A stretch of 35,429 nucleotides of DNA from an uncultured Clostridia bacterium (GTDB taxonomy: Bacteria > Bacillota > Clostridia > Christensenellales > HGM11417). Location: contig CALVJY010000023.1 in assembly GCA_944332455.1 (NCBI GenBank), positions 1 through 35,429 on the forward strand, read 5' to 3'. The position numbers and the translations under genes were made by a program. Under the pieces are notes generated by a model. It worked only from the letters and a program-made list of their open reading frames with translations. It made no database searches and was not told where the DNA came from. Shown in pieces: positions 6,468-19,733 of the stretch. Numbering within the stretch: the stretch's first letter is position 1; every line of letters starts with the position of its first letter.

Positions 6468-8972
6468 TCATCTTCTGCGGCGCCGCCTTGCGCCCTTGTA
6501 CTTTTTCCGGGTGTCCACCACCACGTAGTAGTAGACGGCTCCCACGAAGATCACCGCCATCACAAAGAGGGTCCAGCCCGGCAGCCGGAGGGCGCCAATG
6601 TTGCGGACGGCGGTCAGGCTGAGGCCGGAGACGCTGCCCCCCACGGTGTAGGGTTCCACCGAATGGGAGCGCCCCCGGAAGGTGAGCGTGGTGCCGCGGG
6701 CCACCCGTTCCAGGCTGAACCGGCCGGCCTCGTCGGTCTGTCCGGCCTCCAGCCCGTCGGCGTAGATGGTGAAGATCTCCCCCGACGGCTGGCCGTCCTC
6801 CCCGAGGATCTGCCCGGAGACCGCGCAGTAGCCGTACACCCGCAGGGTGACCCGGCCGTCTGCGGCCCGGACCGCGCCCGGGCCCTCGCCCAGGTCCTCC
6901 AGGGTGAAGTTTTCCAATCTGACGGTGATCAGGTCGGTGTCGTAGAGTTCGGCCGCGATCACCCCGTTTGCAAAGGTAAAGTCCGAAAAGGGCTGGCCGT
7001 TCAGCAAAAGCGTCGGGATCTCGGCCGAAAAGGCCGCCCCCGCCTCGTCGGTCAGGGCGATCTCCAGCCGCACCGGGGTCTTGGCCGCGGCGATCAGTTC
7101 GCCCAGCCCGGCGTTCTCCCCGGTCACGGTCACCTCGGGCAGCTCGTACCCCCGGACAAAAAAGCTCAGCAGATCCCCCTCCCGCACTTCCAGCGAAAAT
7201 TCGGGGCTTTGGGCGGTCAGAACATAGTCGCCGTTGCGGAAGATCTGCACCCCCTCCTCGGGGAAGCGGTCAAAGACAAAAGTCCCGCTGACCTCGAACC
7301 AATCGGGCTCCGGCCGCAGGTCAAAGCTGACCGAGCCGTCCTCGTTCAGCACGATGTTTTCCAGCACCGCCCGGCTGTTCAAAATCCCCTCCCCGGTCAG
7401 GTAGCCGAACACGTTTTCGGTCTCGGCGGCCTCGGCCGAGCCGAAGGACTCGCCTTGGGTGAACACCCCGTCGAAGAGGTAAGTGGAGGAAAGGATCGAC
7501 TCGCGGCGCAGCACGAAGATCTCGTTGTTCCCGTCGATGTTGCCCCCGCTCTCCCCGGCGGCTCCGGGATCCACCCGGTAGCACAGCAGCCCGGTCTCGC
7601 CCGGGCGGAGGAAGGGAAGCTCCCGGTCGATGCCGTCCGCGGTGCGGGTCTTGGCCTCGATGACGAAGAACTGCCCCTCATGCTCCCCGAAGCGGAGGGC
7701 GGACGCCCCCTCGCCCCGAGGGTACAGGGTGTAGCGGATCTGTCCGGCGGAGGCCTCGGCGATCTCGGTCCAGCCGAACTTCTGCCGGTACCAGGCGTTC
7801 AGTCCCTGGGGGGCGCCGGTGGTCACCCCCATGATGTCCCAGACGCCCACGGGGACTTCGGCCCCCTCGGCCGGCTGGTAGTGGTAAAGGTCGGTCACCC
7901 CGAAGCTGCCGCCGCCGGGGACCAGATCGTCCAGCATGTGGATGGTCTCGTGGCAGAGCACGCCGGCCTCGAAGTCCTCGGAGGAGCCTTTGACGTACTC
8001 GTCGGCCAGCAGCACGTAGTTTTTGACCTGATTGCCGTCCAGGGTCAGCTCCCGGCAGAGGGTCTCCCGCTCCTCCTGCGGCCAGCCGCTGAACTCGAGG
8101 GGCGAGAGGGCCTGCAGGGTGCGGGCGGAGCTGACCAGCTCCCACTTGTGAGGCCAGAACGCCGCGGTGTTGGCCGCCGTGTTGTCGGGGGTCAGTCCGC
8201 CGCCGCTGACGTAAAAGGTCAGAAGATCGCTCTCGGCGTCGCGGTTGAGATCCAGCGCCCCCCGGCCGAGATCCTCGGCCAGGCCGTCGCCGTCCAGATC
8301 CACCGCCCCTCCGCTCAGCTCGGCCACCAGGGCCTGTCCCTCGTCCGAACCCAGCAGGGCGGTCAGGGCATTGCGCACCAGAAGCTGTTCCCGGCGGAGC
8401 TTTTCCAGGCTTTCGGCCGGATCTTCGGCGGCGCACAGGCAGACCATGCCGTCCGAGCCGTCTTCGTCGCAGTTTTCGCCGCAGGTCCCGCTGCAGCCGC
8501 AGTCATAGACCTTCAGCTCGCCTTCCGTGTACTGCCAATAGCCCTCGGGATTCGAGGGGGAATAGGGCAGATAGTACGCCTGGGTGTGCCCGTCCACATA
8601 GACCCCGGGCACCTCGACGGTGTGCAGGGTGAAGGCCGACCCGGAGATCTCCGCAAAGTAATTCTTGACCCCCAGCGGCTGCTCGTTGAACAGCGAAAGG
8701 GTCTGTTCCCGCCGGGTCAGGGTCTCTCCCTCGGGGACCTCGGCAAAATAGCCCTCCTCGCCCGAGCCCCCCATTTCGATGAAGAACAGCAGGTTGAGGG
8801 CGGTCCCGGTCAGGCCGGAAGAGCCGGCCGCGCTCTCCCCGGTCGGATCGGAAGAGATCGCGCCGTCCGCGATCTCCCCGGAAGAGCCGTCTGTTTCGGC
8901 CCGGAGGGGAAGCGGGGAGCAGACGGCCGCCAGCCAAAGCACCGCCGTCAGCAGCATGATGAACTTTTTCAT
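6468..8972 (-). CDS. Secreted zinc metalloprotease (HExxH; M6/InhA-like, tentative) with carboxypeptidase-regulatory-like beta domains and a C-terminal membrane anchor
   Basis: Start placed at the internal MKKFIMLLTAVLWLAAVCSP (signal peptide) preceded by AAGGAGGA; the track's start at 9026 is a probable 18-aa over-extension. LCHETIHMLDD HExxH motif. SGQILGEDGQPSGEIFTIYADG...GRFSLERVARGTTLTFRG resembles CarboxypepD_reg. The C-terminus LPGWTLFVMAVIFVGAVYYYVV + KKYKGARRRRRR is a hydrophobic segment plus a basic tail. Confidence 0.6.
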   Translation of the reverse strand: MKKFIMLLTAVLWLAAVCSPLPLRAETDGSSGEIADGAISSDPTGESAAGSSGLTGTALNLLFFIEMGGSGEEGYFAEVPEGETLTRREQTLSLFNEQPLGVKNYFAEISGSAFTLHTVEVPGVYVDGHTQAYYLPYSPSNPEGYWQYTEGELKVYDCGCSGTCGENCDEDGSDGMVCLCAAEDPAESLEKLRREQLLVRNALTALLGSDEGQALVAELSGGAVDLDGDGLAEDLGRGALDLNRDAESDLLTFYVSGGGLTPDNTAANTAAFWPHKWELVSSARTLQALSPLEFSGWPQEERETLCRELTLDGNQVKNYVLLADEYVKGSSEDFEAGVLCHETIHMLDDLVPGGGSFGVTDLYHYQPAEGAEVPVGVWDIMGVTTGAPQGLNAWYRQKFGWTEIAEASAGQIRYTLYPRGEGASALRFGEHEGQFFVIEAKTRTADGIDRELPFLRPGETGLLCYRVDPGAAGESGGNIDGNNEIFVLRRESILSSTYLFDGVFTQGESFGSAEAAETENVFGYLTGEGILNSRAVLENIVLNEDGSVSFDLRPEPDWFEVSGTFVFDRFPEEGVQIFRNGDYVLTAQSPEFSLEVREGDLLSFFVRGYELPEVTVTGENAGLGELIAAAKTPVRLEIALTDEAGAAFSAEIPTLLLNGQPFSDFTFANGVIAAELYDTDLITVRLENFTLEDLGEGPGAVRAADGRVTLRVYGYCAVSGQILGEDGQPSGEIFTIYADGLEAGQTDEAGRFSLERVARGTTLTFRGRSHSVEPYTVGGSVSGLSLTAVRNIGALRLPGWTLFVMAVIFVGAVYYYVVVDTRKKYKGARRRRRR

Positions 8973-9366: not shown

Positions 9367-12087
9367 TTAAAAAAGATTAAGTGCCAGGGGGAAGAGGTAG
9401 AGCGCGGCGAACACGCCGGCGGCCAGCAGGGCGCAGCAGACGAGGGCGGCCTTTTGCGCGGCCGGGGTCATGCGGGAGAGCAGGGCCTCGGCCCTCTCCC
9501 CCGCCCGGCCGAAGAGCCGGAAGTTTTCTTTGCCAAACCATGCGGCGAGGCGGCGGGAAAGCCCCGCCCGGCAGCGGAAGGCCGTCCACAGCCCGCTCAG
9601 CAGCAGGCCGAGGCCGGTGAGGACCCCGCCCGCGACGAGGCCGGGCGAGCGGTAGACGATCTCCACCGTGTTGAGCCCCTCCTCCAGGGGCAGGGAGAGC
9701 AGGCCGAAGACCTCGGAGACCTCCACGGTCCGGCCGTTGACCCGGGCGGAAAAGCCGGCGTCCCAGGGCAGGGCCACCAGCAGATGTTCCCCGGCCCCGG
9801 CCTCGATCTCCCCGCTCAGCCGGTTGGGCGAGGAGGAGAGCCCCTCGCCGGGGTCGGCGATCAGCTCGGCCAACCGGGCCTCGTCCAGGCCGTACACCCC
9901 GAAGGAGGAACAGGTGAAGGACTTGTGCAGATAGACCTTGACCTGCACGGTCTCGTCCTCGAAGCTGCCCAGGCAGATCAGGCCGTTCTGGGACTGGGAG
10001 GGATAGTCTGCGGCGGCCAGGCGGTTGTTGACGTAGACCGTGGCCGCGCCGTTGATCTCCTCCCGCAGGGCGTTGCTGACCCGGTCGAAGAGGTCGAAGT
10101 AGAGGGTCTGCCGGCCCTCGACCTCGATCTCCCAGCTGACGAAGGCCGTGTTGTCCGAGACCGCGAAGGAAAAGCCCTCCGCCCCGCTCTGGTCGATCAC
10201 GCCCCGGCTGTCGGTAAAGTCATAGGCCCGCATCAGCTCCTCCCCGAACAGCAGGTCGGAGAGGGCGTTCTGGGCGGCCAGGCGGTCGAGGGGAAGTTCG
10301 GTCTGCCCGCCGGGCAAAAAGGTCACCCCCAGGGGGAGAACCCACGGGCTTTCAGTAATGGCATAGTTCGGGGTCTGAAAGACGGCGTCCCCGCCCCCCG
10401 AACGGGAGATGACGTACTTGTGGGAGAACAGGGCGTCGGAGAGCAGGGTGCCGCCGTGGGAGCCGATCTCCATCCAGTAGCCCGAATAGCCCAGCTTTTT
10501 GGCGGTGTCCATCAGGGTGGCCTGGGTCATGGAGGTGTAGTGGGCCAGCGAGGGATAGCCGATCCCGCCCACCCAGTTGACGTCGAAGAGCTTGCGCTCC
10601 ATCTTGACCCGGTAAAAGCTTTCGTCGTCGAGGGCCTCCGCCAGCTCGGCCACGGCCGCGTAGTCGGTCGGCTCTTCGGCGGGCGGGATCAGGTAGACGC
10701 CGCAGCCGAACACGGCCTCCACGGCGGCCAGCGCGCACAGGCACAGGCCGGTGACCGCCCGGAATCGCCACCCCACCCGGTCCAGGGCAAACAGGCACAG
10801 GCCGGCCCCCAGGGCCACCAGGTAGTAGGTCAGCAGGGCGGCAAAGGAGGCCTCGTCCCCCCACAGGGTGGAAGAATAGGCGTCCATTTCCCCGACGTGG
10901 GCGGCCAGCCAGTCGGAAGAGAACCGGACCATGACCAGGCAGACCCCAACCGACAACAGGGTGCCGACAAGCTGCAGGGGCAGACAGTTCTGACGCACCG
11001 GGGCGGCAAGCTCCGGGGCGGCCTCCCCCTCTTTTCGCGCCCCGAGGGCGTCGGCGGCCAGGGAGAGCCCGCAAAACAGGGTGATAAAGGCATAGCGGGT
11101 GGGAAAGGCCATGTAGTCCCCGGTCTGCCACATCTTGTTGACCGGCTCCACAAAGAGGGGGATGAGGGTGAGCGCGAACAGGATCAGCATGGGGTTTTTC
11201 CGGTCCTTCCACAGGGTGTACCCCACGAAGGGCAGGAGGGGAAAGAGGCAAAAGACGGTGGGCACCGTGGTCTCGATGGGGGCGGTCAGGCTGCTGCCGG
11301 CCAGAATGGAGAACAGGCCGCGCATGCGGGCCGAGGCCCCGTAGGCGGACAGCATGGGCAGCCAGACCACGGCGGAGCAAAGCGCCGCCCCGCCGCAGGC
11401 GCGCAGAAAGCGCAGGGCGGCCGCCTTCCGGTTGGGCAGGCCGATCAGCCGGATCCCGGCGTAGAGGGCGAAAAAGCAGACCACCGGAAAGCTGAGGTAG
11501 AGGTTGAGCACGACCTGCAGGGCCAGCAGGATCCCGAACCATCCCCCCTTCCCCCGGTCGAACAGCCGTTCAGCGGCCAGCAGCAGGAGGGGGAACAGCA
11601 TCACCGCGTCCAGCCACATGGGATTCTGGAAGTACATCAGGCAGTAGCCCGAAAAGGCGTAGAACACCGAAAGCCCGGCGGCCGCGAAGGGATGCACCCC
11701 CGGCCGGGCCAGCCGGAAAAAGACCGAGGCGGTCAGGGCCGCGGCGCACAGCTTGCACAGCACCAGGATGTTGAGGAAAAGGGCCATGTCGGCCCGCTCC
11801 CAAAACAGGGCGAGAAAGGTGAAGGGCGAGCAGAGAAAGAAGAAAAAGACCCCCCAGAAGTTCATGCCGCCCCCGTTCAGCATGCTCAGCAAAAAGCCGT
11901 CTTTTCCCGCCAGCATGTCCAGAAACTCGTTCAGCAGAGGGAGGAACTGCTGGTCCATGTCGCCCCAGGCCAGGCTCTTGTCCCCGAAGGGATACAGGCC
12001 GCCCGAGGCATAGATGCCCAGAAGCAGGGCCGCCGTCATCACCGGGGCCAGAAAGATCATGATGTTTTTAAAAATTTTGTCTTTCAT
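9367..12087 (-). CDS. YfhO-family polytopic membrane protein (putative glycosyltransferase/lipid-linked glycan transferase)
   Basis: N-terminal MKDKIFKNIMIFLAPVMTAALLLGIYASGGLYPFGDKSLAWGDMDQQFLPLLNEF...NFWGVFFFFLCSPFTF matches the YfhO N-terminal pattern; many TM segments, then a large C-terminal extracytoplasmic domain. Start ambiguous: the track start 12147 (MCRF..) runs into a structured repeat, so the MKDK start at 12087 is preferred. No strong RBS at either. Confidence 0.75.
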   Translation of the reverse strand: MKDKIFKNIMIFLAPVMTAALLLGIYASGGLYPFGDKSLAWGDMDQQFLPLLNEFLDMLAGKDGFLLSMLNGGGMNFWGVFFFFLCSPFTFLALFWERADMALFLNILVLCKLCAAALTASVFFRLARPGVHPFAAAGLSVFYAFSGYCLMYFQNPMWLDAVMLFPLLLLAAERLFDRGKGGWFGILLALQVVLNLYLSFPVVCFFALYAGIRLIGLPNRKAAALRFLRACGGAALCSAVVWLPMLSAYGASARMRGLFSILAGSSLTAPIETTVPTVFCLFPLLPFVGYTLWKDRKNPMLILFALTLIPLFVEPVNKMWQTGDYMAFPTRYAFITLFCGLSLAADALGARKEGEAAPELAAPVRQNCLPLQLVGTLLSVGVCLVMVRFSSDWLAAHVGEMDAYSSTLWGDEASFAALLTYYLVALGAGLCLFALDRVGWRFRAVTGLCLCALAAVEAVFGCGVYLIPPAEEPTDYAAVAELAEALDDESFYRVKMERKLFDVNWVGGIGYPSLAHYTSMTQATLMDTAKKLGYSGYWMEIGSHGGTLLSDALFSHKYVISRSGGGDAVFQTPNYAITESPWVLPLGVTFLPGGQTELPLDRLAAQNALSDLLFGEELMRAYDFTDSRGVIDQSGAEGFSFAVSDNTAFVSWEIEVEGRQTLYFDLFDRVSNALREEINGAATVYVNNRLAAADYPSQSQNGLICLGSFEDETVQVKVYLHKSFTCSSFGVYGLDEARLAELIADPGEGLSSSPNRLSGEIEAGAGEHLLVALPWDAGFSARVNGRTVEVSEVFGLLSLPLEEGLNTVEIVYRSPGLVAGGVLTGLGLLLSGLWTAFRCRAGLSRRLAAWFGKENFRLFGRAGERAEALLSRMTPAAQKAALVCCALLAAGVFAALYLFPLALNLF

Positions 12088-12149
12088 GTCCGTATCATGT
12101 ACCGTTTTAACATGTCTCCGTCCAAAACGTGCCGCAAAGCGGCACATAT

Positions 12150-12960
12150 CGAGCGGCAGCGCCGCCGGGCTGGAACCCCCGTAAAGAATGAAGGGTAAAA
12201 AGTTACTGTTCTCGCTCTGTCTTTCAGTCGATATGTTTCCCTGACGGGAAACTCGATATGTTTGCCAAAGGCAAACTTGATATTTGCCCGCACAGCGGGC
12301 AATCGATATGAATGGCCTCGTTTATTGTCTTTTCCCTCTATAATTTGTCACTCCATATTGAAGCAAAGATGAAGGCAGAGCCCCCCCAACCCCGGCCATT
12401 CGTATTGGATGAAAACAGAACAAAAGCTATGAATTTATAACCGCACTGCTTTCAATGTGTTTTGTCCACAACGTGACGCGAAGCGGCACATATCGAGCAA
12501 AGTGAGCGCAGCGGAACTTTGCATATCGAATGGCCGTCAGGCCATATATCGAGTTTGCCGAAGGCAAACATATCGACATAAAACTTATCGCAGGAACAAA
12601 TAATCAATATTCCCGCTTTCTAAGAGTGGGCGCGCCTTCCTGGCGGCGATGCCGCCCAGGAACAAAGAATTAGTTTCCCCTCTCCATACGAGTGGGCGTT
12701 CTCGCCCGGTGCCGCCAGCACCCGCATATCGAATGGCCGTCAGGGCATATATCGAGTGCCGCATTGCGGCACATATCGACTTAAATTCATCGCAGGATAA
12801 ATCAATCATTTTTCCGCTTCATACGAGTGGGCGTGCAAAAAGGTGCCGGTGGCACCCCTGGCGGTACCTATCAATCTTAGCACAAAAGCCGGCATTTTGC
12901 AAGAAATCTTTCCCATGTCCCCTAAGGATTTGACGAATTTCCCGAAACATGCTATACTAG
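12150..12960. repeat. Structured leader block A (~800 bp), paralogous to block B at 17345-18000. Contains three ATATCGA/hairpin arrays (12228-12316; 12489-12580; 12724-12780), AGGAACAAA...ATACGAGTGGGCG units and GGTGCC..GGCACC hairpins
   Basis: Direct alignment by eye with 17345-18000. Shared long strings include GTTCTCGCTC..TCTTTCAGTCGATATGTTTCCCTG(A)CGGGAAACTCGATATG, CCCGGCCATTCGTATTGGAT.AAAACA.A.CAAAAGC.AT..ATTTATAACCG.ACTGCTTTCAATGT, CATATCGAATGGCCGTCAGG(G)CATATATCGAGTGCCGC.TTGCGGCACATATCGAC. Confidence 0.85.
12930..12958 (+). promoter_or_regulatory. Sigma-70-type promoter: TTGACG - 17 nt - TATACT
   Basis: ttgacgaatttcccgaaacatgcTATACT read directly; ~125 nt upstream of the ATG at 13084. 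Confidence 0.6.
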
Positions 12961-13083: not shown

Positions 13084-14154
13084 ATGCAGCTCTTTTTGCA
13101 GTTGGCCTGCCTGTTTGCGGTGGGCGCGGTGATCGGGTGGTGCATCGAACTGGTGTTCCGCCGCCTGTTCACGGCCAAAAAATGGATCAACCCCGGGTTT
13201 CTGAACGGGCCCTATCTGCCCCTGTACGGCTTCGGGACGGTGATCCTGTACGAGATCAGCGACCTGCCCCTTGCCGTGGGGTGGAAGATCGTCCTGTTCG
13301 GCGTGCTGCTGACCGCCGTGGAATATGCGGCGGGCATTCTGTTCATCAAGGGCATGAAGATCAAGCTGTGGGATTACTCCAAGCGGTGGGGCAACATCCA
13401 GGGCATCATCTGCCCCCTGTTCTCCCTGCTGTGGACGGCCGCCGGCACGCTGTTTCTGTTCTTTGTCTATCCCTGGCTGCAGGGCGTGCTGGCCTGGTTT
13501 GCCGAGCGCGCCCTCTCCCCCTTCTTCCTGGGGGTCTTTTACGGGGTCTTTCTGGTGGACCTGGGGGCCAGCTTCGGGCTGGGCGCCCGCCTGCGCAAGC
13601 TGGCCGCCGAGGCCAGGGAGACGCTGGCCTACGAGGAACTGAAGGCCTATCTGCGCCAGCGGGCCAAAAAGCTCCGCAAAAAGGTCAGCTTTCTGCTCCC
13701 CTTCCGCTCCGACCGCTCCCTGAAGGAGAACATCCGCGCCTTTCTGGACAGCCGCCGGCACCGGGAAGGGCCCGTGACGGCAGGCGGACCGGACGGCGAG
13801 GCCCCGGCCTCCCCGCCGGAAGGCCCTGCGCCGGAAGATCCGGGCTTTGAAAAGATCATCCCGACCGCCCCGGAGCGCGGAGAGCCGATCCCGCAGCCGG
13901 AAAGCCTGCCGGAAGATCCGGCCGGGGAGAGCGCGAAGGCGGCCGGCCGAGCGGAATGCGGAGGGCCGGCCCTTCAGCCGGAGGGCAGGCCGGACCCGGA
14001 CGCCGGGGGATCCCTGAAGGACCCGATCGCCGAACGCGGAGAGGCGGAAGCCACCGCGCCGGAAGATCCGGATTTTGAGCAGGCCCGGAACACTGAAACT
14101 TCCGCCCCGAAGGGGCCGAAAACCTGTGACCGGCCGGGCAAAAAGGGCGATTAA
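13084..14154 (+). CDS. DUF1113-like (putative ABC-transporter type IV) polytopic membrane protein with ~150-aa disordered C-terminal tail carrying P/E/A-rich repeats
   Basis: LFAVGAVIGWCIELVFRRLF...GPYLPLYGFGTVILYEI...WDYSKRWGNIQGIICPLFSLLW pattern; the tail contains repeated A(P)EDP(G/D)FE.. motifs. RBS AGGAGGG. Confidence 0.6.
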   Translation: MQLFLQLACLFAVGAVIGWCIELVFRRLFTAKKWINPGFLNGPYLPLYGFGTVILYEISDLPLAVGWKIVLFGVLLTAVEYAAGILFIKGMKIKLWDYSKRWGNIQGIICPLFSLLWTAAGTLFLFFVYPWLQGVLAWFAERALSPFFLGVFYGVFLVDLGASFGLGARLRKLAAEARETLAYEELKAYLRQRAKKLRKKVSFLLPFRSDRSLKENIRAFLDSRRHREGPVTAGGPDGEAPASPPEGPAPEDPGFEKIIPTAPERGEPIPQPESLPEDPAGESAKAAGRAECGGPALQPEGRPDPDAGGSLKDPIAERGEAEATAPEDPDFEQARNTETSAPKGPKTCDRPGKKGD

Positions 14155-17344: not shown

Positions 17345-18000
17345 CTTCGCTTCCGGCCAGACGCAAAATTCGCCTTTGGCGAATTTTGGCCGGACTTGAG
17401 GGGACAAGGCGGCAGCGCCGCCGGGCAGGAACGCCCGTAACAAATGGCATATAAAAGAGTTGCCGTTCTCGCTCCTTCTTTCAGTCGATATGTTTCCCTG
17501 CGGGAAACTCGATATGTTCCCTTCGGGAACTCGATATTTGCCCGCTTTGCGGGCAATCGATATGAATGGCCGGTAGGTTTGCACAAAAGGGTTTTCTCCC
17601 GCTGAATTTACTGCGAATCAACAGGCAGAATCCCCAAACCCGGCCATTCGTATTGGATAAAACAAATCAAAAGCCATAGATTTATAACCGTACTGCTTTC
17701 AATGTATTTCTGTCCACAACGTGCCACAAAGTGGCACATATCGAGCGGCACGATAGGGCCGCATATCGAATGGCCGTCAGGCCATATATCGAGTGCCGCT
17801 TTGCGGCACATATCGACATAAACTCATAGCAGGAACAAAGAATTAGTTTTCCCACTCCATACGAGTGGGCATATTGCCCGGCGGCGCTGCCGCCCAGGAA
17901 CAAACAATCATACTCCTGCTCAGTCAGAGTGGGCGTACAAAAAGGTGCCTGTGGCACCCGGCGACGCCGCCCATGGGTTTGGGATATAAATTTTGGGATA
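17345..18000. repeat. Structured leader block B (paralogue of block A). Starts with an inverted R1 hairpin-2 copy (17345-17405); ATATCGA/hairpin arrays at 17485-17580 and 17737-17820
   Basis: See block A; lies upstream of the ZIP transporter gene. Confidence 0.85.
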
Positions 18001-18003
18001 ACA

Positions 18004-18070
18004 TAGAGATAGAACAGATAAAATGTTAACATAGGGTGGTTTTCAGCCCTTCCTAGAGATAGAACAGATA
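18004..18070 (+). promoter_or_regulatory. Two 17-bp direct repeats TAGAGATAGAACAGATA (18004-18020; 18054-18070) flanking a 10-bp perfect palindrome ATGTTAACAT (18023-18032). Candidate metal-regulator operator/promoter of the ZIP gene
   Basis: Read directly; 35-100 nt upstream of the ATG at 18105 (RBS GAGGAGGTG). Confidence 0.45.
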
Positions 18071-19277: not shown

Positions 19278-19733
19278 ATGGTCGTAAATCAAGAGATCAA
19301 CACCCTTGTGAACGCCTATTGCAGACTGCGGGACAGACAGTACGCGGTTTACAGCCGCTGCGCAAAGCGGCACGGTCTGACCGCCAACGAACTGTTCGTC
19401 CTCGACATTCTCTGGTTTGCGCCGGAGGGCTGCACGCAGACGGAGATCTGCGAACGGCTGTCCGCCAACAAACAGACGATCGCCGCCGTGATCGACAGAT
19501 TCCGGAAGAAGGGCCTTCTTTGGTACGAAGAAGTGGCCGAGGACCGGCGCAACAAGCGCATACGCTTTACCGAGGCCGGAAGGCAGTATGCGGGCGCGGT
19601 CATTCCCCCCGCCGCCGGCGCGGAAAATCTGGCCATGGCGGAGCTGGGGATCGAAAAGCTGGCCGAACTTGTCAAGCTTACCGCGAGGCTGACGGAAAAC
19701 ATGGAAAAGCAGTTTGCCGCCCTGTCTGACTGA
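19278..19733 (+). CDS. MarR-family transcriptional regulator
   Basis: wHTH core ...GLTANELFVLDILWFAPEGCTQTEICERLSANKQTIAAVIDRFRKKGLL...; 151 aa; RBS GGAGGT. Confidence 0.85.
   Translation: MVVNQEINTLVNAYCRLRDRQYAVYSRCAKRHGLTANELFVLDILWFAPEGCTQTEICERLSANKQTIAAVIDRFRKKGLLWYEEVAEDRRNKRIRFTEAGRQYAGAVIPPAAGAENLAMAELGIEKLAELVKLTARLTENMEKQFAALSD

Follow-up and report, generated by a model that had tools for sequence, protein, structure and literature searches.

Two heptamer–hairpin blocks in a Clostridia contig are orphan copies of an intervening-sequence-like element of four-helix-bundle gene cassettes

The stretch of DNA analysed here (the window; contig CALVJY010000023.1 of an uncultured Clostridia bacterium, 35.4 kb) contains two homologous non-coding blocks in which the heptamer ATATCGA, or its reverse complement TCGATAT, recurs between short hairpins. 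Block A (12129–12860) is flanked by a minus-strand YfhO gene and an operon of CmpB-like, ATP-binding cassette (ABC) transporter and FtsX genes; block B (17408–17960) sits on the other side of that operon, before a ZIP transporter gene. Homology between the blocks extends over ~600 nt, and both have the same orientation. In each, a run of TCGATAT (T-array) is followed ~180 nt further on by a run of ATATCGA (A-array); block A carries in addition a second A-array of three units and one isolated unit. Both blocks are rearranged orphan copies of an array element of Clostridia; the element belongs to four-helix-bundle (S23p) gene cassettes and is akin to the intervening sequences (IVSs) of 23S ribosomal RNA (rRNA).

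The arrays are far from random. Counted on both strands of the window, ATATCGA occurs 19 times, as opposed to a mean of 1.03 ± 1.04 and a maximum of 4 in dinucleotide-shuffled sequence (0 of 100 shuffles reached 19), and all 19 copies are confined to the two blocks. A degenerate heptamer, TTGATAT at 12277–12283, makes a twentieth copy and fills out the T-array of block A. Hairpins abut the heptamers, and nearly every interval between heptamers is a hairpin of 5–8 bp. Contiguous stem pairs in these intervals add up to 78 bp, compared with a mean of 9.2 and a maximum of 22 for shuffled intervals, and 78 is an undercount, two intervals being out of register from the placement of the degenerate heptamer. 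Stems of different units, and of blocks A and B, differ in sequence yet retain their pairing. The original prediction, made from the sequence alone, of five non-random arrays in which structure is conserved and stem sequence is free is borne out; the period of 22–26 nt that it gave holds for nearly all intervals, the lone exception (12490 to 12523) being 33 nt. The parts of the two blocks are as follows.

12129–12152, plus strand: isolated unit of block A, hairpin GTGCCGCAAAGCGGCAC (12129–12145), then ATATCGA (12146–12152)
12153–12227, plus strand: left flank common to blocks A and B, with a GC hairpin GCGGCAGCGCCGCC and the stretch GTTCTCGCTC..TCTTTCAG, from the A/B alignment and repeat families D11 and D17
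12228–12309, plus strand: T-array of block A, TCGATAT starting at 12228, 12253 and 12303 and TTGATAT at 12277, with three 7–8 bp hairpins between
12310–12472, plus strand: enlarged centre of block A, closing helix GAATGGCC (12310–12317) / GGCCATTC (12394–12401)
12473–12576, plus strand: A-array 1 of block A, hairpin GTGACGCGAAGCGGCAC, then ATATCGA starting at 12490, 12523, 12546 and 12570
12577–12725, plus strand: two M modules of block A, hairpins with the 3′ arm GAGTGGG at 12624–12632 and 12690–12698
12726–12779, plus strand: A-array 2 of block A, ATATCGA starting at 12726, 12749 and 12773; repeat families D4 and D5
12780–12862, plus strand: third M module of block A, GAGTGGGCG at 12825–12833 and hairpin GGTGCCGGTGGCACC
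17408–17484, plus strand: left flank of block B, homologous to 12153–12227
17485–17563, plus strand: T-array of block B, TCGATAT starting at 17485, 17509, 17531 and 17557, three hairpins
17564–17720, plus strand: enlarged centre of block B, closed by GAATGGCC (17564–17571) / GGCCATTC (17642–17649)
17721–17816, plus strand: A-array of block B, hairpin GTGCCACAAAGTGGCAC, then ATATCGA starting at 17738, 17763, 17786 and 17810
17817–17960, plus strand: two M modules of block B, GAGTGGGCA at 17863–17871, GAGTGGGCG at 17927–17935 and a hairpin at 17943–17959

The original prediction had named confinement to this one duplicated block as a finding that would count against it, and many copies were found in other genomes. 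A scan of one genome per species for three ATATCGA at 14–20 nt spacing returned at least 120 loci. Among the matches listed, metagenome-assembled genomes (MAGs) of gut Clostridia dominate (Oscillospiraceae, Acutalibacteraceae and Christensenellaceae), and matches outside gut Clostridia are ordinary tandem or coding repeats; most viral-contig matches to the heptamer pattern in IMG/VR are likewise unrelated tandem or coding repeats. At least 54 two-array elements (52 from other genomes and the two in the window), most of them in MAGs of these three families, share one architecture. The canonical element of ~175 nt usually consists of four TCGATAT-plus-hairpin units, a short centre and four ATATCGA-plus-hairpin units, and both window blocks have this layout, a TCGATAT-type array followed by an ATATCGA-type array with at least three identical heptamers in each. 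Several array copies occur per MAG, dispersed among unrelated contexts.

A covariance model (R1) built from 32 canonical right halves matched all five arrays of the window, with scores of 69.1, 66.9, 56.4, 56.1 and 30.3 bits and a next-best match at E=2.3. The T-arrays were matched in the minus-strand reading (block B, 69.1 bits, E=5.8e-12; block A, 66.9 bits, E=1.6e-11) and the A-arrays on the plus strand (12478–12582, 56.4 bits, E=2e-9; 17726–17822, 56.1 bits, E=2.3e-9; A-array 2, 12671–12785, 30.3 bits, E=3e-4). The isolated unit gave a weak partial match (12129–12168, 8.8 bits). In Rfam 15, scanned at gathering and at permissive thresholds, no family lies over the arrays of the window or of 12 canonical loci, and neither rRNA nor any other Rfam family was found in the window; transfer RNA (tRNA) and transfer-messenger RNA (tmRNA) were not detected in it either. 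The open-access literature that we searched held no paper on these arrays, and the hairpin-spaced Clostridial arrays, together with their many orphans, are apparently undescribed.

The family is tied to one gene. At no fewer than eight genome loci, an open reading frame (ORF) of 116–118 amino acids (aa), or a decayed remnant of it, begins 17–25 nt after the last ATATCGA, and the ribosome-binding site of the gene lies ~10–25 nt past the last heptamer. The product belongs to PF05635 (23S_rRNA_IVP; E=1e-22) and TIGR02436 ('four helix bundle protein'; E=1e-25), a family whose first members came to light within IVSs of rRNA. In a metagenome search that started from the gene, nearly every homologue (56–79% identity) with enough upstream sequence has a two-array element directly 5′ of it; in the other direction, the gene accompanies ~1 in 10 of the array loci among the matches listed, ~90% being gene-less. 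The only recurrent neighbours of the arrays are this gene and an RlmD-like methyltransferase gene. A protein partner had been expected at the outset, and one protein family does co-occur with the arrays; it is the PF05635 four-helix bundle and not, as proposed, an HUH/RAYT (REP-associated tyrosine transposase; REP, repetitive extragenic palindromic), KH/S1, CsrA or TRAP protein. The accompanying idea of a multivalent binding platform is plausible.

An AlphaFold model made from a database homologue of the linked gene (predicted local distance difference test (pLDDT) 87) resembles the S23-family pentamers 2RLD and 2GSC with template-modelling (TM) scores of ~0.85 (0.86 for 2RLD), and Avd, both alone (4DWL) and as the Avd chains of the diversity-generating retroelement (DGR) ribonucleoprotein 8UB7, with TM scores of ~0.8. 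None of the PADLOC defence models matched the protein, and IMG/VR yielded no homologue of its gene. In the flanks, the Pfam-annotated gene neighbours in L304–L307 and the recurrent flanking families included no reverse transcriptase. PF05635/TIGR02436 proteins are very common, with thousands of metagenome clusters. More distant PF05635 genes (BT_0352-like genes of Bacteroides, and others of Bacteroidaceae and Anaerolineae; L308–L315) lie co-oriented within operons, at aldolase/araA, aminotransferase/DAHP synthase and hsdS/hsdR sites, where they are bracketed by inverted tandem arrays of TTGACAAT / ATTGTCAA; no paper with these arrays was found in the open-access literature searched. Inverted arrays of short words seem to be a general companion of the PF05635 gene family.

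The gene-linked loci vary in layout. A frequent 'home' order is an RlmD/RumA-like (TRAM/tRNA_U5-meth_tr) rRNA methyltransferase gene, the arrays and the four-helix-bundle gene (L032, L038, L041, L109, L227, L233, L234, L238, L251, L304 and L305), and there the 3′ end of the methyltransferase gene runs into the hairpin ahead of the first heptamer. At L304 (4382–4600) a second A-type array of 6–8 units lies 3′ of the gene, and upstream of the gene in L253 the A-array has grown to ~9 units. In the lineage with the heptamer ATATCAC, the arrays follow a tRNA terminator, and between them and the gene stands a promoter-like TTTACA-17-TATATT, read by eye. Many four-helix-bundle proteins in databases are called at 160–200 aa and not 116, their ORFs being extended through the arrays. 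Within block B of the window, 17802–17850 (the end of the A-array and the start of the M modules) translates to CGTYRHKLIAGTKN*, which resembles the four-helix-bundle C-terminus CGTIRRMLIAS..TAKKN; as a remnant of the gene this candidate is unproven and chance is possible, given 7 of 10 identities and tblastn E=0.7–3.6.

Structure is conserved throughout the family. In a set of 258 hairpin units whose stems are unrelated in sequence, pairing is found at 91% of nested positions, compared with 39% after shuffling. For 41 elements, RNAalifold returned the hairpins together with pairing of the heptamers from T1:A4 to T4:A1, a ladder of four-way junctions with compensatory changes at 27 of 49 consensus pairs. 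RNAfold z-scores were −6.9, −6.9 and −8.3, and block B of the window folds into the same ladder as the family (−171 kcal/mol, z=−8.3), its A heptamers pairing with its T heptamers. Six heptamer variants occur (ATATCGA, ATATCGC, ACATCGA, ATATCGT, ATATCAC and ATCTCGA); each is lineage-specific and is matched in the other array by its exact reverse complement. To regard the heptamer as a single-stranded word, as the original prediction did, is probably too simple, since the reverse-complementary heptamers covary across lineages and both RNAfold and RNAalifold pair them. An asymmetric long-range helix joins T1 and the 5′ half of hairpin H1 to a 12-nt centre 5′ of A1 (for example GGGATTTATATC); it is 98.4% paired, with compensatory changes at 7 of 11 pairs and 0 of 500 shuffles equalling it. 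Centre/T1 complementarity reaches at least 10 of 12 positions in ~38 of 54 elements, and this helix gives the element an orientation.

The window copies depart from this plan in several ways. Their centres measure ~160 nt, compared with 12–60 nt in canonical relatives. That of block A contains a stretch, CCCGGCCATTCGTATTGGAT...TGTCCACAAC, that is kept in block B and in sister strains, defined here as contigs encoding an identical ABC ATPase (strain set L214–L221). Across blocks and strains, the conserved stretch of the enlarged centres (12310–12472 and 17564–17720) reads CCCCAAACCCGGCCATTCGTATTGGAT...ATTTATAACCG.ACTGCTTTCAATGT..TGTCCACAAC; in strain L214 an M module replaces part of it. The first hairpin of A-array 1 in block A has paired GA/GA dinucleotides, as in the family hairpin H5, and A-array 2 resembles a second copy of the right-hand portion of A-array 1. 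M modules, found only in the window's species, are made up of CAGGAACAAA.., a 7-bp hairpin with the 3′ arm GAGTGGG(CG) and then a GC-rich hairpin; they follow the A-arrays and, in sister strains, also precede them. When read on the plus strand, the M hairpins of the window and sister strains contain 18 G·U pairs and 1 A·C pair, an excess that argues for selection on the plus strand in single-stranded form. Comparison of the sister strains reveals a shuffled mosaic in which hairpin units are exchanged and stems change in a compensatory manner, for example from GCCCGC/GCGGGC to GCCCAC/GTGGGC. A-array 2 is missing from strains L214 and L216, and strain L219 has no arrays, the third M module (12780–12862) being the sole part of block A that it retains.

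These observations allow us to propose what the element may do. We suggest that when the plus strand is transcribed, the short hairpins would fold locally, and that the complementary heptamers of the two arrays would then pair, T1:A4 to T4:A1, to give a rod of four identical 7–8 bp duplexes linked by four-way junctions. This rod would be the functional unit, serving RNase III-type processing or acting as an insulating structure, as in the S23p-carrying IVSs of 23S rRNA, and it could also be a multivalent target of the pentameric four-helix-bundle protein. Specificity of the protein, in this proposal, would account for the eight identical heptamers per element and for their changing together between lineages. 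The window copies, which are gene-less and strain-variable and have an enlarged centre and M modules, would be dispersed, decaying or trans-acting derivatives and not self-contained cassettes. That the transcript ladder is a target of RNase III, of the four-helix-bundle pentamer or of both is a tentative reading, to which we assign a probability of about 45%; we infer transcription of the arrays, cleavage by RNase III and protein binding from anatomy, covariation and two precedents.

Several asymmetries follow the sense strand of the linked gene and are consistent with an RNA. On that strand the A-arrays contain 22 G·T and 6 A·C pairs, and paired GA/AG positions (41 and 39; hairpin H5, 'GAGC...GCGA') occur on it only. 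The centre/T1 helix is asymmetric along the same strand, and the last heptamer adjoins the ribosome-binding site, which we count in favour of a sense-strand RNA. Elements lie 20–60 nt after co-oriented genes or tRNA genes, and where the neighbouring genes are in tandem, co-oriented elements outnumber anti-oriented ones by 22 to 4. Co-orientation with the upstream gene was considered as proof of RNA function and set aside, as only the tandem contexts are informative and a leading-strand bias could yield the same figures. R1 was tried as an arbiter of strand within the window and left the matter undecided.

A number of points weigh against an RNA ladder. G·T wobbles and sheared G·A pairs are stable in DNA hairpins too, so strand asymmetry alone is no proof of RNA, and Firmicute genes are biased to the leading strand. 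R1 scores the T-arrays, read on the minus strand, slightly above the A-arrays. Because the heptamers within one element are all identical, the ladder pairing is indistinguishable from the same site inverted, and T1 covaries with the centre and not with A4. Neither window block has the canonical centre/T1 complementarity, with only 7–8 of 12 positions matching, and a tblastn search of the window for the four-helix-bundle gene gave no homologue (best E=0.7). Block A adjoins divergent genes, and the operon downstream has its own promoter-like site; several elements elsewhere come after terminator-like hairpins. Finally, the loops of the two arrays are mirrored: on one and the same strand, A-array loops are GNA/GNRA and T-array loops are their reverse complements (TNC 31, TYNC 11, GNRA 1). 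Each unit reads 5′-ATATCGA-stem-G..A-stem on the ATATCGA-bearing strand, and as DNA the two arrays mirror each other. This pattern is not accounted for by one transcript; it points to an inverted duplication at the DNA level or to reading of both strands.

The mirrored loops are the main reason to take seriously an element that works as DNA, which we regard as unlikely but as the most substantial of the competing explanations. Here the target of recognition would be the ATATCGA-hairpin with its GNA loop in single-stranded or cruciform DNA, irrespective of the strand that has it, and the inverted arrays would mark the termini, or the sites of recombination, of an element that is or once was mobile, comparable to REPINs (paired inverted REP sequences), transposon terminal repeats or HUH hairpin-plus-nick sites. 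If identical heptamers were cut and rejoined, units would be shuffled, gained and lost, and within the window's species units have indeed been swapped and arrays gained or lost, up to the array-less strain. The dispersal of copies among unrelated contexts, several to a MAG, fits as well, as do the near-identical element copies 1.6 kb apart in L041, the duplication in L109 (gene-strand 6730–7400) of the whole T-array, so that it flanks both sides of the A-array and gene, and the predominance of convergent over divergent gene contexts (17 versus 3). In one pair of IMG/VR contigs (L128, 5142–5309; L205, 755–922), a canonical element lies 4 nt 3′ of a gene for a 237-aa rolling-circle Rep/HUH-like protein in which LVVTLTY and HHHLII motifs are recognisable; no other HUH neighbour was seen. 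T(C/T)GATAT may also recall the CTTGATAT core of phiX174/pC194-type nick sites. However, no transposase, HUH or recombinase/integrase gene recurs among the clustered flanking ORFs in the flanks covered, and neither target-site duplications nor clean empty sites were seen in the sister-strain comparison. The GA/AG pairs of H5 and the centre/T1 helix are asymmetric along the sense strand of the gene, and the four-helix-bundle protein has no known catalytic activity, its relative Avd being an RNA binder.

Less probable still, in our estimation, is that the elements are REP-like RNA blocks, located between cistrons or in 3′ untranslated regions, that would block exonucleases, terminate transcription or insulate neighbouring cistrons without any protein, the gene being merely a frequent neighbour. 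Their position shortly after co-oriented genes or tRNA genes, the bias of the tandem contexts and the very stable predicted folds would all suit such a role, and the elements are mosaic and polymorphic, as are bacterial interspersed mosaic elements (BIMEs). Stability alone, however, requires neither a conserved heptamer nor eight identical copies nor concerted change with the lineage of the adjacent gene, and from the side of the gene the linkage is almost complete. As for ending transcription, the hairpins lack U-tracts; one array unit of the window fits the intrinsic-terminator pattern, the total being near the shuffle level, in keeping with the first assessment that this is not a terminator array.

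We consider it quite improbable that the heptamers are double-stranded DNA operators, iteron-like and four per orientation, through which the four-helix-bundle protein or another regulator would control an adjacent promoter. They are identical short inverted sites 5′ of a gene with which they covary, and in the ATATCAC lineage the promoter-like site between arrays and gene would be suitably placed; but binding to duplex DNA leaves hairpin spacers of free sequence with compensatory changes unexplained, at most gene-linked loci the last heptamer is too close to the ribosome-binding site for a promoter to fit between them, and ~90% of copies are not beside the gene. Chance, low-complexity sequence or an array of the type of clustered regularly interspaced short palindromic repeats (CRISPR) has regular spacing in its favour and nothing else, and is already refuted by the excess of heptamers (19 versus ~1) and stem pairs (78 versus 9 bp), by homologues in dozens of genomes and, for CRISPR, by a 7-nt repeat with palindromic 'spacers' in place of 23–50 nt direct repeats with unique ones, by the lack of cas genes among the neighbours checked (YfhO, ABC transporter, ZIP and MarR) and by a best permissive Rfam match in the window, to a CRISPR direct-repeat model, of E=4 and away from the arrays, so that the original exclusion of CRISPR stands.

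Beyond the window, we put forward, as a possibility that we judge less likely than not, that PF05635 proteins (S23p, 'stand-alone Avd') and the lineage-specific word arrays that flank them form a general two-part system in which the pentamer recognises the repeated word, the folded ladder of duplexed heptamers and hairpins being its Clostridial version. Such a cassette would spread or persist within units that are transcribed (rRNA, tRNA operons and mRNA operons) and leave many ORF-less arrays behind, which the protein may still bind in trans. If true, this would be a new partnership of RNA element and protein, or a minimal mobile element, and would provide a ligand for a very large orphan protein family. 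PF05635/TIGR02436 includes Avd, the essential cofactor of DGR reverse transcriptases, and the stand-alone and IVS-encoded members have been without a known function or ligand for ~30 years. The linkage of arrays and gene, the covariation of the heptamers, the octamer arrays of the distant relatives and the heptamers of Coxiella together offer a testable lead to what PF05635 proteins act on. There is also a consequence for annotation, as gene callers read through the arrays and inflate four-helix-bundle ORFs and probably the YfhO ORF of the window.

The YfhO ORF of the window is a case in point. It spans 926 aa (9367–12147, minus strand) and overlaps the isolated unit, as had been noted; the gene calls of sister strains start at the ATG equivalent to 12087 and give 906 aa. 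The 926-aa ORF is probably over-extended into the array region, and with the start at that ATG the isolated unit is intergenic. On the other side of block A, a strong sigma-70-like promoter site (TTGACG-17-TATACT, 12930–12958, with TG before the second hexamer) is kept in all strains, including the array-less one, and the downstream operon, having its own promoter-like site after the block, is independent of block A. Within that operon, the 3′ part of the CmpB-like gene (13817–14078) contains ~34-nt repeats CGGAAG.C.C.GCGCCGGAAGATCCGG..TTTGA and the 16-mer CGCCGGAAGATCCGG, which are probably protein-sequence repeats. The FtsX gene is followed by a terminator-like hairpin (17353–17393), CCGGCCAGACG..AAAATTCGCC TTT GGCGAATTTT..GGCCGG. 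In L214 (9123–9600) a second copy of this motif brackets an extra ~330 nt that is missing from the window, which suggests a deletion between the repeats. TAGAGATAGAACAGATA occurs twice without mismatch (18004–18020 and 18054–18070), at a spacing of 50 nt, in the region immediately 5′ of the ZIP transporter gene (18105). The two sites are candidate operators that might serve, for instance, the MarR-family gene at 19278 or a metal regulator.

Among known systems, several share some traits with the Clostridial arrays. CsrB/RsmZ, TRAP targets and ANTAR leaders likewise present many short motifs on or between small hairpins at regular spacing; however, the CsrB/RsmZ motif sits in hairpin loops, the TRAP target is a triplet, neither these nor ANTAR leaders have two complementary arrays, and no CsrA, TRAP or ANTAR gene is linked to the arrays. 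Integron attC sites, too, are defined by fold rather than sequence and stand immediately 3′ of co-oriented ORFs, with recognition, in the case of attC, of a folded single strand, but attC is one long imperfect hairpin with R and L boxes, extrahelical bases and the integrase IntI, whereas the Clostridial arrays consist of mini-hairpins and have no recurrent integrase neighbour.

The stem-loop bound by Avd in DGRs involves a homologous protein fold. Avd is a pentamer that binds a stem-loop next to its own gene, the same residues of different protomers being used, and one RNA stem-loop is contacted by all five protomers (10.1101/2023.10.23.563531). A DGR has one 11-bp stem-loop with flipped-out bases, a reverse transcriptase and template and variable repeats, in contrast to the eight short hairpins and repeated heptamers of the Clostridial element.

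For the behaviour of the population (mosaics, orphans and one dedicated gene), the best analogy is with REP/BIME and REPIN–RAYT systems. These too are short extragenic palindromes with a conserved flanking word, inverted, mosaic and strain-polymorphic, located mostly after genes or between convergent genes, with one dedicated gene family and an orphan majority. The original prediction separated the arrays from classical REP/BIME, and rightly so: REP stems are conserved in sequence within a genome, the word is GTAG and the partner is an HUH Y1 transposase (RAYT), whereas the Clostridial stems are free and differ between units and strains, the conserved word is ATATCGA or another lineage-specific heptamer, the partner is a non-catalytic four-helix bundle and no transposase recurs among the clustered flanking ORFs.

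The closest known relative is the S23p-bearing IVS of 23S rRNA, found in Coxiella, Leptospira, Brucella and Haemophilus, which encodes a protein of the same family, a pentameric four-helix bundle of PF05635. The arrays of the window differ from it in lying between protein-coding genes and not in helix 25 or 45 of 23S rRNA, there being no rRNA in the window, and in missing the PF05635 ORF, which is present in their gene-linked relatives. In the Clostridial element the heptamers are spaced by hairpins of free sequence, most copies are ORF-less, and both inverted arrays usually lie 5′ of the ORF and do not bracket it, their complementary heptamers being predicted to pair. Directly upstream of the S23p ORF, the IVS of Coxiella has GACAGAT heptamers in tandem, two or three depending on the strain; a 28-bp inverted-repeat stem closes the element, with RNase III cutting at the first repeat (PMC4990558). 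The ORF decays there while the RNA part persists, and the element, which stands in the sense orientation in a highly transcribed unit, is regarded as selfish (PMC4990558).

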